Notes: generated by a model from the sequence alone, not told the origin. A stretch of 64,000 nucleotides of DNA from a bacterium (GCA_965216315.1 CBDCFN010000016.1:2144001-2208000); one strand, 5' to 3'. Counted from the stretch's first letter, positions 12,229 through 57,515 are shown. A program made the numbers and translations.

Positions 12229-13530
12229 ATGAAACGCATTTTATTCTTACTTCCCATCCTGTTGGCCTACTCTGTCACGGCACATGCCCGCATCTACATC
12301 CGCATTGATGAAGTCGCCGAAAAGAAATTTCCGATCGCGATCACCAACCTCATCAACGACGGCGGCAAACGCGACAACAAAAACTGGTCACGCGAAATCC
12401 CCAAGATCCTGCAAAACGATCTGCGCATCTCGGGTCTCTTTGAATTTGTCGACCCGGAGATTTTTCCCGGCGAGGATTCAAACACATACAAGCCCGGTGA
12501 CGTGAAATTCCCGGCGTGGAACCTGCTTGGGATTCAGGGCCTCGTCAAAGGCGGTTTCACCTACGGAAGCGACGGCAAGGTCACGGCGTCGATCTATCTC
12601 TACGATCCTTCGCTGGGCCAAAAAATCGTCGCCCATGAGTACCGGGCCAACGCCGGTGAGTTCCGCAAGGTCGCGCACCATTTTGCCGACATGGTCATGG
12701 AAGCCCTCACCGGTTATCCCGGCATCTTTCGGACCCGCATTGCCTTTGTCTGCGGCAGCAAGAAGTCCGGTAAGGAAATCTGCAGCATGGGGGTCGACGG
12801 TAAAGAAGTCGCCAAGCACACCTCGGATCGCAACATCAATATCAGTCCCGAATTTTCCCCGGGCGGGGGCAAGATCGCTTACACCTCATTCACCGAGGAA
12901 GGGGATGCGGAAATCAAGGTGGTCAATGTCGGCTCGAAGTCGGTCCGGCAGATCACTAAAAAAGGCGGCATCAACCTCTCCCCAACCTGGACCCCGGGTG
13001 GCGGTCTTATCACCGCACTCGTCGGCGATAACGGCGACAACATCTACAACATCAGCATGAGCGGACGGCTCGTCAAGCGGCTAACCAATCATTGGAGTAT
13101 CGACATCGCCCCGTCATGGAGCCCGGGCGGCGACGCCTTTACCTTTTCTTCGGAACGGGCCGGCGGCCTGCACGTCTTCCGTGCCAATGCCGGCGGCGGC
13201 GGCGTGCAACGTTTGACCTTTGTCGGCTACCAGAATGATAACCCCGCCTGGTCGCCGGACGGTCAACGCATCATGTTTCAGGGACGTGACCAGGGAACCT
13301 GGGATCTCTTCATCATGAACCCGGACGGTTCGATGTTGCAGCGGCTCACCGCCGGCGCCGGCACCAATCAAGAACCGACCTGGGCCCCGAACAGCCAATA
13401 CATTGGTTTTGCCTCGAGCCGCGGCGGCGGCATGAGCATCTACATCATGAATGCGATGGGTGAGAACGTCACCAAGGTCGGCGGCGGAGTCATGCCGTCA
13501 TGGGGTCCGTTACCGAAGAAATCCCTATAA
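12229..13530 (+). CDS. tolB: TolB beta-propeller protein
   Basis: Signal peptide, TolB_N, AHHFAD...LTGYPGIFRTRIAF, PD40 repeats (PSWSPGG, PAWSPDG, PTWAPN). Confidence 0.96.
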   Translation: MKRILFLLPILLAYSVTAHARIYIRIDEVAEKKFPIAITNLINDGGKRDNKNWSREIPKILQNDLRISGLFEFVDPEIFPGEDSNTYKPGDVKFPAWNLLGIQGLVKGGFTYGSDGKVTASIYLYDPSLGQKIVAHEYRANAGEFRKVAHHFADMVMEALTGYPGIFRTRIAFVCGSKKSGKEICSMGVDGKEVAKHTSDRNINISPEFSPGGGKIAYTSFTEEGDAEIKVVNVGSKSVRQITKKGGINLSPTWTPGGGLITALVGDNGDNIYNISMSGRLVKRLTNHWSIDIAPSWSPGGDAFTFSSERAGGLHVFRANAGGGGVQRLTFVGYQNDNPAWSPDGQRIMFQGRDQGTWDLFIMNPDGSMLQRLTAGAGTNQEPTWAPNSQYIGFASSRGGGMSIYIMNAMGENVTKVGGGVMPSWGPLPKKSL

Positions 13531-15171
13531 CGCTAAGGCCTGCTCTAGATACTGCAAATTAATGCGCTCCGTCACGAGGCGCCTACGCTCCTGCTCCTGT
13601 TGACCTGTGAGTGTCTTGTCGACGAACACGAAATGATCCGGCCTGGTCTCGACCAACAATCCGTTATCACGCGCCCACTGCTCCATTTCCTGGTCCTTCT
13701 CAACAGCGAGGTAGAACAGGCGCATCCGCAAGTGATCACGCAGCTTCGTTTGGTCCTGGATTAACCCATCGACGTCAATCAAGGCGCTCAGACGATCCGC
13801 ATCAGACACGAACGGACCGGTATAGTTGCGCACCAAATCATACCCGGCTTCAATTCCCTTCCGGGCCCCGTCATTATGGTAGATCTCCGTAAGCTCTCTT
13901 TGCACTCCCGTCCAATCGATTCGCCATTTTTTATTCGCCAAATGGGTATGCCGGAGGAGAACGCTGAACACGGAGGCTTCGAGGCTCTCGCCAAACGTCT
14001 CGGAGTCCCCGATCAATTTATGAAGTATCTTAAAGATCTCTGCCTTGTAGGCTTGTTTGAAATCGCTATCGAACCAACCGGCGACCGTGTCTCCGAAGGT
14101 CGCGAACGTACCGAAGGCGCCGGCAATGAAGTCACCCCGTTCCTGGACGTTATAAATATCCTGACAGAGACGGATCACGTCAAAAAAGCGTTCGTCACTG
14201 TCACCCGTGAGCGCGTGACCAATCAGATCGGCCACCCCGCGGGCCCCCAGGTCAACGATACCGGCCCAGCCGACCAAGCGGGCCGTCCCGACAGCCAGTC
14301 GGGCGACGGCGGCCTTGGGACCCAAACCGCCGAGTTGGAACCCTTTGATGACGGACGTGGTTTCGAGAGCCTCGGCCAGGACCGGAACCTGAGTCGCCAA
14401 GGCGTAGGGAATCCCGGCCAACACGAGTCCTCCGAACATCGTCGCAGTTTCATCCGCCTCGACGCCGAGAAAATCGAGCAGGCCGTGCGCCAAATATTGG
14501 AAACCCATAAAGGTGGGAACCTGCCCGAGCGCTTGCAACGGGCTCTTCTGCACCAGTCCCGCCTTATACAGCCCCTGGTGAATCAACATAACGCTCGTAA
14601 ACAGGACCGGACTGCGGGCCTCTTCGGGCAAGACTCCCGCCTCAATCAGGCTTCCTATCAACCCTTGATCGAGGGCGACGACCACTGCGGCTCCCCCGAA
14701 AAGCGAGACGGTCAGCCCGAAGGTACCCGGCGTATTGGGTCCGTTCGGGCCACCCGTCGCGGCGCGCAGCGCGGAGGGAGCCGAACCGGCGCGCGACAGA
14801 GTCAATTGCATCGTCAGCTCGCCGTTGCTCATCACCATCTGACTCAGCCGGAACGAAATCGGCAAACGCCCTTCAACCGCCACCGCATAAAAGGGCTGTA
14901 AATAAGACTGCAGCGCCGGAGACAACTGTTTAAAGTGCCGTGTCAGCTCAAGATCTTGCTCAAAAGGCAAATCAAGCGAAAGCGGTTGTGGTGCGAGTAG
15001 CTTGGTCACGCCATTTTGAATGGGCACAGGTGACGCGATGGCTGTAGCGCCCGGCTCCGGTGCCAGCGCATCGACGACACACTGTAAAACATTGGCTTGC
15101 TCCTGACAAAGTGTCAGCGCTTGGCCGACGCGCGCCAAGCCGGTACTCGTCATTACCGTAACGAAACTCAT
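13525..15171 (-). CDS. Array gene 1: family A hydrophobic multi-helix protein (548 aa)
   Basis: LPISFR, GVLPEEARSP, PTFMGFQ, GWAGIVDLGARG, IRLCQDIYN, WRIDW, YTG, LTGQQ shared with 17715 and 29814; GGAGG RBS. Confidence 0.88.
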   Translation of the reverse strand: MSFVTVMTSTGLARVGQALTLCQEQANVLQCVVDALAPEPGATAIASPVPIQNGVTKLLAPQPLSLDLPFEQDLELTRHFKQLSPALQSYLQPFYAVAVEGRLPISFRLSQMVMSNGELTMQLTLSRAGSAPSALRAATGGPNGPNTPGTFGLTVSLFGGAAVVVALDQGLIGSLIEAGVLPEEARSPVLFTSVMLIHQGLYKAGLVQKSPLQALGQVPTFMGFQYLAHGLLDFLGVEADETATMFGGLVLAGIPYALATQVPVLAEALETTSVIKGFQLGGLGPKAAVARLAVGTARLVGWAGIVDLGARGVADLIGHALTGDSDERFFDVIRLCQDIYNVQERGDFIAGAFGTFATFGDTVAGWFDSDFKQAYKAEIFKILHKLIGDSETFGESLEASVFSVLLRHTHLANKKWRIDWTGVQRELTEIYHNDGARKGIEAGYDLVRNYTGPFVSDADRLSALIDVDGLIQDQTKLRDHLRMRLFYLAVEKDQEMEQWARDNGLLVETRPDHFVFVDKTLTGQQEQERRRLVTERINLQYLEQALAL

Positions 15172-15180
15172 GCTACCTCC

Positions 15181-57381: not shown

Positions 57382-57488
57382 GGTGGTCCTCCTAAAAGTC
57401 CTAGCTTATAAATTCCTCAAATAAATCCCTGTTGAAAAAGTCCTCGCACAGACACGAAAAAATATTCGTTTGCCTTGCACGTAGAAAC

Positions 57489-57515
57489 TTATCGGGTTCC
57501 CAAAAAAGAAGTTGC
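57489..57515 (-). promoter_or_regulatory. Array promoter motif (sigma28-like)
   Basis: GCAACTT-cttttttgggaa-CCCGATAA. Confidence 0.8.

Follow-up and report, generated by a model that had tools for sequence, protein, structure and literature searches.

The stretch of DNA from an uncultured bacterium considered here (the window, G000:C16:2144001-2208000, 64,000 nt in full; positions below are window coordinates unless a contig is named) belongs to a 2.96 Mb assembly that is 98.3% complete, and contains an island of 22 consecutive minus-strand open reading frames (ORFs; 13525-57381, 265-1131 codons each). The reading that we favor, to which we would assign a probability of roughly 0.45, is that this island encodes a sigma-28-controlled set of membrane-inserting proteins exported by a type III secretion system (T3SS). 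The genes and their families, the promoters, the T3SS with its sigma factor, the synteny, the patterns of lysine and cysteine usage and the lack of known folds are direct observations, from which we infer that this sigma factor transcribes the genes and that the products are exported and inserted into the membrane of a target, with roles for the cysteines and for lysine loss.

Under the proposed mechanism the island would be an accessory part of a large regulon under a FliA-like factor of the sigma-28 family, encoded within a non-flagellar T3SS cluster. Once the T3SS program is on, this factor would transcribe the island genes from their own CAACTTT-N11-GCCGATAA promoters, and a TTGCGAA/TTCGCAA box might permit separate tuning by a second regulator. 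The products, having neither a Sec nor a Tat signal, would exit the cell via the T3SS; family A, probably a helical, Gly-rich and weakly hydrophobic bundle, and family B would insert into the membrane of the target cell, and the basic C-terminal module of family C could dock FHA, AAA+ and other domains at the same site. The N-terminal cysteine pair might serve as a shared sorting or lipidation handle, and the loss of lysine might shield these proteins, whether in the target or in the secretome, from an attack aimed at lysine.

Families, promoters and N-termini of the island proteins

All-vs-all BLASTP comparisons, together with profile searches, sort the 22 proteins into family A (nine members), family B (five), family C (seven) and the singleton g22, which has no relative within its own genome. 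BLASTP links g01, g02, g03, g05, g06, g07, g08 and g09 as family A paralogs at 22-40% identity (17-40% over the family), and the multiplicity and divergence of these paralogs would fit host- or prey-facing proteins. The ninth member, g14, pairs with no other protein in BLASTP and escapes a hidden Markov model (HMM) of the eight paralogs alone; because a 53-row family A profile built without it aligns g14 end to end (27.5 bits, E 1.3e-9), and because it has the common N-terminal motif, it is counted as a divergent member. Family B (g10-g13 and g15; 53-74% identity by BLASTP) is typified by a Cys-rich N-terminal domain, from which a single transmembrane helix and a Gly linker lead to a Pro/Val tail. 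Family C (g04 and g16-g21) is joined solely via a C-terminal module of ~100 residues, helical and with a strongly basic tail at its end. When 18054 stop-to-stop ORFs of the genome were searched with an HMM made from the final 105 residues of six of these proteins, matches were confined to the island, namely in g04, g16, g17, g18 (two copies), g19, g21 and g20 (five weak copies). The N-terminal domains preceding the single helix are ~190 aa long in B and 95-330 aa in the C proteins, and bear no signal.

An own copy of the promoter precedes 17 of the 22 genes. Sixteen of these are clean sites of the form [CGA]AAC[TA]T..-N11-[GAT]CCGATA[AC], and that of g18 has the variant -10 box GGCGATAA (14.4 bits); no site is found before g01, g09, g14, g16 and g21, each of which comes after a promoter-bearing gene. 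The -10 consensus recognized by sigma-28 (FliA) is likewise GCCGATAA, with a -35 box of TAAA(GTTT) at 11-nt spacing, and the -10 boxes of the 16 clean sites fit the pattern [ACGT]C[CG]GATA. Neither σ70-like promoters (9 versus 8.1 expected) nor intrinsic terminators (8 versus 10.3 expected) are enriched in the island. The TTGCGAA/TTCGCAA box accompanies 13 of 16 island promoters as against 17 of 128 outside, and a further box, TTTCG[ACT]CA, 7 of 16 as against 1 of 128; being nearly private to the island, these boxes suggest a putative island-specific second regulator.

A weight matrix made from the 16 clean sites, which match it by construction, was used to scan the genome at a threshold of at least 13.5 bits. 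It recovers 161 matches versus 30 in reversed or complemented sequence, i.e. ~130 net, and for 146 of the 161 (18 of them in the island) an ORF of at least 80 codons starts within 350 nt. In 54 of the 128 non-island matches, on contigs C15 and C16, the start codon lies no more than 12 nt after the matrix window, which suggests that this short-spaced class might be expressed from leaderless mRNAs. Residues 2-25 are uncharged in 54% of the class versus 5% of 2040 background ORFs, and its median lysine content is 2.3% versus 4.9%; the first 25 residues are rich in Ser, Thr, Ala and Leu, and the proteins are mostly unrelated. Since the 146 promoter-linked proteins, those of the island included, fall into 127 BLAST clusters, this N-terminal character appears signal-like rather than a mark of common ancestry, and the class with uncharged N-termini is a candidate for a separate class of secretion signal. 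Two orphan genes directly 3' of fliR (G000:C16:360580 and 362915) have the same promoter type.

A crude rule for Sec- and Tat-like signals, applied from every in-frame start codon, flags none of the 22 island genes from any start; it flags three of three local controls and 436 of 2040 genome ORFs. The island N-termini are rich in Cys and in Ser, Thr and Pro, but charged. At least two cysteines occur in the first 35 residues of 17 of the 22 proteins versus 11% of the background, a count that uses six corrected start codons and in which paralogs are not independent. The spacing is characteristic of each family: C-x6-C in A (kept in the relatives from genomes G001 and G010), C-x14-C in B and C-x19-C in g16 and g17. 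A 19-residue Kyte-Doolittle window of at least 1.6 is reached by 10 of the 22 proteins. The hydrophobic region of family A, as read from its sequences, is Gly-rich and weakly hydrophobic, which is compatible with proteins that would first be soluble and later membrane-inserted.

Lysine makes up less than 1.2% of 11 of the 22 island proteins (none at all in g04 and g07), as against 98 of 2018 ORFs elsewhere in the genome, and families A and B each contain lysine-free beside lysine-normal paralogs. GC content was considered as the cause of this loss and ruled out: the GC3 values of lysine-free and lysine-normal island genes lie in the same range, 0.56-0.71, and in G046, a genome of 41.5% GC, the proteins of the related cluster have 0.2-1.4% lysine versus 7-9.5% in their neighbors. 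As the loss is independent of GC content, differs between paralogs and is not seen in a pair of A and B-like proteins from G085 (~5% lysine), it appears to be selected, but not in every member of the family. Across the genome, lysine is below 1.2% in 109 of the 2040 ORFs that are 150 codons or longer, among them proteins of 1064, 1078 and 2496 residues at 0-0.1%.

Searches with Pfam profiles recovered an FHA domain (PF00498) in g18 at 40.8 bits against a cut-off of 20.7, another in g20 just below it at 20.2 bits, and an AAA domain (PF00004) in g19 at 23.9 bits against 21.2. NCBIfam, PADLOC and PHROGs together add just a Clp-like AAA match in g19, whose AAA region matches the PHROG 'ATP-dependent protease' (E 6e-6), the sole PHROGs match among the 22 proteins; PADLOC matches none of the 22. 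No known toxin domain was detected with Pfam, NCBIfam or a lenient Pfam search to E 5. The center of g18 was also considered as a transglutaminase-like cysteine protease and rejected, as it has no Pfam match at E <= 5 and a PDB profile search gave FHA only; the three residues of a conceivable Cys-His-Asp triad are all replaced in the G010 relative.

An initial annotation of the window had described 22 consecutive genes on one strand, in three families and a singleton, 17 with a promoter of their own and five downstream of one that has it, with common C-terminal modules, N-terminal cysteines, a strong lysine bias and no classical signal peptides. The ORF calls, the BLASTP comparisons and the above searches bear this out, the modules being those of the seven family C proteins, the bias a depletion, and the lack of signals extending, by the crude rule, to alternative starts. 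Its statement that nearly all the proteins have transmembrane-like helices is borne out in part, 10 of the 22 reaching the Kyte-Doolittle threshold. Among the cargo domains that it had listed, FHA (g18, and borderline in g20) and Clp-like AAA (g19) stand, but the transglutaminase-, EF-hand- and barrel-like ones are without a Pfam match even at E 5. It had further put the array forward as a candidate undescribed system, and families A-C indeed match no characterized one.

A type III secretion cluster with a sigma factor gene

The sole FHIPEP (SctV) gene of the genome (C16:339083-341218) belongs to a T3SS cluster (G000:C16:339083-362743) situated 1.8 Mb from the island. The cluster encodes two SctD-like FHA/YscD proteins, TPR proteins (one of 147 aa), a 335-aa YscJ/FliF-like protein, and FliG_C-like, FliH/SctL, ATPase, YscO-like, FliK-like, FliM, FliN, FliO, FliP, FliQ and FliR proteins. 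Its YscD-, YscJ- and YscO-type parts are injectisome-like, its FliG_C-, FliO- and FliK-type parts flagellum-like, and a PP2C phosphatase and an FHA-PEGA-TPR protein adjoin it. The inventory comprises SctV, J, D-like, L, N, O, Q-like, R, S and T, with SctU elsewhere in the genome and two secretin matches far from the cluster; the needle family PF09392 gave no match, its positive control being equally silent. Flagellin, the rod family Flg_bbr_C, VirB4 and VipB were not found in the 98.3%-complete genome, although the positive controls for all four gave matches. Given the presence of the cluster, and that the flagellin and rod genes were not found, the apparatus is a non-flagellar T3SS with some flagellum-like parts.

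Amid this cluster lies a sigma-70-family gene whose best family is FliA/WhiG (TIGR02479), and, judged from sequence, its product would be the best fit in the genome to the island promoters; no FlgM-like anti-sigma factor was identified. SctV is present in all 41 of the genomes comprising G000 and its 40 nearest relatives, and the sigma factor in the same 41 at 52-81% identity; when the two tables are read together, the two genes lie no more than 20 kb apart on one contig in 16 of the 40 relatives. The closest named SctV proteins are from Archangium metagenome-assembled genomes (MAGs; 53%), a 'Deltaproteobacteria' MAG (52%) and a Chlamydiae MAG (49%).

The initial annotation had placed the export machine outside the window, in agreement with the location of this cluster, and had linked the island promoters to sigma-28, for which the -10 box and the FliA/WhiG-like factor, the latter below its curated cut-off, provide support. 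The survey of flagellar, type III, type IV and type VI secretion genes that it had proposed yields one non-flagellar T3SS, with flagellin, rod, VirB4 and VipB not found. The co-occurrence of export system and island families, which it had likewise proposed to compare, is seen in that SctV occurs in 41 of 41 genomes, but does not discriminate, family A being found in only 18 of 93. Its overall interpretation is thus supported in part: the sigma-28 link, the export machine elsewhere and the lack of a characterized system stand, and delivery into a prey or host membrane, life-stage specificity and co-expression are putative features.

Conserved neighborhoods, competing readings and parallels

Searches at the level of the phylum and of the class return an identical set of 93 genomes, so that in this collection the phylum amounts to one class. 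Of the 93, 18 encode family A proteins at E <= 1e-3 and 17 at 1e-6, often as tandem genes. In G001 the order of the locus is a C-type gene, a g18-like gene (46%), another C-type gene, a g19-like gene (34%), a B-like gene and four A genes; in G010 it is g22-like (30%), g21-like, g18-like, two B-like, three A and one B-like. The G046 locus has two proteins with Arg-rich tails, which from a reading of these tails alone might be C-like, followed by B-like and A genes, and that of G085 has A and B-like genes. Genes in all four of these loci are preceded by the same promoter type with small variants. A broad alignment of family B, with rows from G000, G001, G010, G046 and G085, which hence match by construction, also recovers G074 and G073 strongly and G002, G031 and G047 weakly, for a total of 10 of 93 genomes. 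Adjacency of A and B is observed in eight genomes (G000, G001, G002, G010, G046, G073, G074 and G085) from four taxonomic families, and g19-like genes occur in six of the 93.

Beyond this collection, a family A profile searched against 1.84 billion proteins matches 84 cluster representatives, of which nine come from the island itself, and none of 54 family A members has a Pfam match at E <= 0.01, the YopB/IpaB/SseC and Inc families included. For family B, a word-based search with g11 among 5.8 billion proteins returned five own paralogs and nothing else, the distant relatives having surfaced by synteny alone, and the ESM Atlas gave no usable match to g11. Sequence searches of the PDB with the A and B profiles, g18 and g19 recovered Gly-linker artefacts and FHA, and nothing further. 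The AF2 model of g01 (54 sequences; pLDDT 83.5, pTM 0.64) predicts a small alpha/beta domain (residues 73-127) followed by helices (150-547), so that family A is modeled as a helical Gly/Ala-rich bundle. Foldseek gave a best E of 0.053 for this model, and VIA-align over 48161 chains found no relative, the best result (Z 6.9, rmsd 2.9, 63 residues) covering the terminal hairpin only. The model of g11 (11 sequences) is confident solely in a beta-rich N-terminal domain (1-135), and a fold search with it gave no match (Foldseek E 1.8, VIA Z 5.2). Prediction of a complex of g01 and g11 scored 0.01 and makes no call either way. In the searches made, families A and B appear to be without a known fold or Pfam family.

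Several observations weigh against a set of exported, membrane-inserting proteins under sigma-28-type control. The cluster sigma factor scores 133 bits with its best family, below the curated cut-off of 189.6 bits, and although the spacer of the island promoters is constant at 11 nt, their -35 box reads [CGA]AAC[TA]T[TC], unlike the textbook one. The island genes have leaders of 23-143 nt and their products a mean of 3.6 charged residues at positions 2-25, unlike the leaderless, uncharged class. Co-occurrence of the T3SS and family A is non-discriminating because the T3SS is in all searched genomes and family A in 18 of 93. FHA and AAA+ are typically parts of cytoplasmic proteins, and the constant co-occurrence of A and B fits a machine as well as an arsenal. 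No chaperone-sized gene is seen in the island among ORFs of at least 100 aa. Further, no ankyrin-repeat gene was found in the genome, which leaves a eukaryotic target without independent support.

The main rival is a structure of the cell's own envelope, an alternative also raised in the initial annotation, which gains weight from the recurrence of the families and the adjacency of A and B. Here A, B and the small C proteins would be signal-less proteins of the inner membrane, inserted via YidC/SecYEG, with cytoplasmic tails that offer docking sites to the AAA+ and FHA proteins, and all of it would be made together with the T3SS, e.g. as a contact or anchoring apparatus. The clustering of the same families across four taxonomic families, with A next to B in eight genomes, is what such a structure would predict; the basic tail of the C modules fits a cytoplasmic location, FHA and AAA+ domains act on that side of the membrane, and FHA proteins with a PP2C phosphatase are also found at the T3SS cluster. 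According to one review, FHA proteins are moreover enriched in the kil clusters of Myxococcus (PMC12428579). However, nine divergent A and five B paralogs would be unusual for a structural part, the distribution of the family is patchy (18 of 93 genomes), large N-terminal domains without a signal precede the single helix in B and C, few segments attain classical transmembrane hydrophobicity, and the strong loss of lysine is left unexplained; on balance we regard this reading as rather doubtful.

It is improbable, in our estimate, that the island is a toxin-immunity arsenal directed against bacteria, with A as pore-forming toxins, B protecting the producer, and C as further toxins with a common delivery domain. 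A and B are indeed constant neighbors, the A model is a helical Gly/Ala-rich bundle of no known fold, and a common C-terminal domain on varied N-terminal parts resembles polymorphic effectors; yet A and B do not match in number (nine and five in the island, four and one in G001), family B resembles A in its N-terminal Cys motif, its loss of lysine and its promoter, which is odd for an immunity protein, and Pfam and NCBIfam detected no known toxin domain. The SctV of this genome, being nearest to the Archangium type (53%), lends this arsenal some further plausibility, in that the needle-less T3SS of Myxococcus acts in prey lysis according to the accessible portion of the source (PMC12428579). 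Least probable of all, and in our view very unlikely, is the absence of any common function, the genes being lineage-specific orphans that arose by tandem duplication under a very common alternative promoter. That the promoter type is frequent (~130 net matches genome-wide) and that no family is of known function would agree with this, but three unrelated families recur together in other genomes, the extra box is largely restricted to island promoters (13 of 16 versus 17 of 128), and the Cys pair and lysine loss are common to unrelated families.

The favored reading, a T3SS-exported set under sigma-28-type control, has parallels among known systems. Late regulons of sigma-28 include the attack-phase regulon of Bdellovibrio and the sigma-28-dependent non-flagellar secreted proteins of Campylobacter. 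The island resembles such FliA regulons in the -10 box, the fixed 11-nt spacer, the FliA/WhiG-like factor encoded with a type III export apparatus and the many signal-less proteins; it differs in that its host has no flagellum, in the -35 box CAACTTT, in the sub-threshold score of the sigma factor, in the many leaderless-looking members and in that no FlgM-like factor was identified. Chlamydial Inc proteins are clustered, signal-less, paralogous membrane proteins, and chlamydiae have a T3SS, no flagella and late genes under sigma-28. The island and its genome share the clustering of signal-less paralogs, the T3SS, the lack of flagella and a sigma-28-type factor, by analogy only: there is no Pfam IncA match, and family A has many weak helices over ~220 residues instead of one bilobed hydrophobic hairpin. 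Nor is there a sign of intracellular life, no ankyrin repeats having been found; the ATP/ADP translocase family (TLC) gave no match in the genome, its positive control being equally silent. Family A is also reminiscent of the YopB/IpaB/SseC translocators in size (500-900 aa), helical character, central hydrophobic region and terminal helical hairpin, and the T3SS cluster has a small TPR protein of chaperone size; it differs in having no sequence match and no clear fold match to known families (the best VIA alignment covering just the terminal hairpin), in comprising nine paralogs and in not being next to the TPR gene.

As far as the available part of the source goes, the nearest studied machine is the needle-less T3SS (T3SS*) of Myxococcus xanthus, which works with the Kil pilus in prey lysis and for which that part names no cargo (PMC12428579). 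Like it, the present system is non-flagellar, has its nearest SctV in Archangium MAGs and has FHA proteins around its cluster; unlike it, so far as that portion describes the Myxococcus system, the cluster here includes a sigma factor gene of its own and genes resembling FliG_C, FliO and FliK. By analogy, a known precedent for lysine loss in delivered proteins is provided by the catalytic A chains of AB toxins, in which, according to the part of the source available, nearly all Lys is replaced and Arg is kept, a feature tied to evading the ubiquitin-proteasome system of eukaryotic cells (PMC13696103). The island proteins resemble these chains, as described there, in losing nearly all lysine while keeping arginine, for reasons other than GC content, and differ in that 98 further lysine-poor ORFs lie outside the island and that the target might be bacterial or eukaryotic here.

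A bolder version would have A and B as the core of an undescribed membrane-insertion system confined to one uncultured phylum, exported by a flagellum-derived T3SS with its own sigma-28-type factor, the Cys pair being a new sorting or lipidation signal of three unrelated families and the lysine loss, over the whole protein, an adaptation of exported proteins to a lysine-directed activity of the target cell or the secretome; we consider this unlikely, if worth stating. Were the favored reading of a sigma-28-controlled exported set true, the promoter would mark well over 100 candidate cargo genes, and with machine and sigma factor in every genome searched the question of cargo could be addressed by sequence alone. 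Literature searches covering the T3SS of this lineage and T3SS effectors poor in lysine yielded no paper on such cargo, nor any on lysine loss in T3SS effectors. Families A and B, being conserved neighbors and of no known fold, are good targets for structural and membrane work, and the occurrence of lysine-free beside lysine-normal paralogs is a natural experiment in which the reasons for lysine loss from secreted proteins could be studied.

Gene list and flanking regions

Positions of the island genes and promoters are collected in the table. As annotated from the longest ORFs (41731-43322), g16 and g17 overlap by 67 nt, with a promoter 5 nt from the annotated g17 ATG, and g16 aligns with its paralog g17 from an internal MPP start; because the promoter abuts this ATG and the alignment starts internally, the probable starts are those given there.

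Table. Genes and sigma-28-type promoters of the island (window coordinates)
Feature	Position	Strand	Description
g01	13525..15171	-	family A, 548 aa; lies 9 nt downstream of g02, without a promoter of its own
g02	15181..17580	-	family A, 799 aa
g02 promoter	17604..17630	-	sigma-28-type
g03	17715..19412	-	family A, 565 aa
g03 promoter	19443..19469	-	
g04	19562..20674	-	370 aa; C-terminal family C module; zero lysine
g04 promoter	20724..20750	-	
g05	20778..22751	-	family A, 657 aa
g05 promoter	22786..22812	-	
g06	22855..24825	-	family A, 656 aa
g06 promoter	24869..24895	-	
g07	24960..26786	-	family A, 608 aa; zero lysine
g07 promoter	26834..26860	-	
g08	26903..29608	-	family A, 901 aa; K 0.3%
g08 promoter	29637..29663	-	
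g09	29814..31727	-	family A, 637 aa; lacks a promoter motif; GC-rich hairpins lie upstream
g10	31864..33195	-	family B; probable true start at the MGC methionine, 6 codons in
g10 promoter	33299..33325	-	
g11	33434..34756	-	family B, 440 aa; K 0.2%
g11 promoter	34900..34926	-	
g12	35101..36090	-	family B, 329 aa; K 6.1%
g12 promoter	36160..36186	-	
g13	36319..37422	-	family B, 367 aa
g13 promoter	37482..37508	-	
g14	37585..40305	-	divergent family A, 906 aa; no own promoter
g15	40333..41613	-	family B, 426 aa
g15 promoter	41650..41676	-	
g16	41731..42591	-	small single-pass protein with family C module; start probably 27 codons in
g17	42525..43322	-	small single-pass protein with family C module; start probably 6 codons in
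g17 promoter	43327..43353	-	
g18	43393..45831	-	812 aa; FHA, unknown central domain, two C modules
g18 promoter	45874..45900	-	variant GGCGATAA
g19	45908..49303	-	1131 aa; AAA+ (Clp-like) ATPase region and C module
g19 promoter	49384..49410	-	
g20	49563..52937	-	1124 aa; hydrophobic helix, borderline FHA, five weak C-module repeats
g20 promoter	53022..53048	-	
g21	53158..55242	-	694 aa; C-terminal family C module; no own promoter
g22	55360..57381	-	singleton, 673 aa, Gly-rich; 30%-identity relative in the G010 cluster
g22 promoter	57488..57514	-	

Hairpins of the form GGGGAGG...CCTCCCC, rich in GC, recur between the island genes (17581-17714, 24826-24959, 31728-31863, 34757-35100 and 36091-36318) and could, to judge from the letters, be REP-like elements or terminators without a T-tract. 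The island is flanked on the left by the end of tolB and on the right by a 508-nt divergent region followed by a signal-bearing thrombospondin-repeat protein, and no tRNA gene was found in the window. Genes with thrombospondin type-3 (TSP3) repeats occupy 57890-61756 and 62007-63998; the first TSP3 protein (1288 aa) has a signal peptide and is nearly devoid of both Lys and Arg, and the second gene has a sigma-28-type promoter ending at ~61968. Toward the other end of the window, an RiPP-modifying enzyme of the MbnB/TglH/ChrH type (338.8 bits) followed by a DUF2063 protein (1768-3469) suggests a small peptide-modification pair, and a gene at 1102-1479 encodes a 125-aa protein with a eukaryote-type RNA recognition motif (RRM_1, 75 bits).

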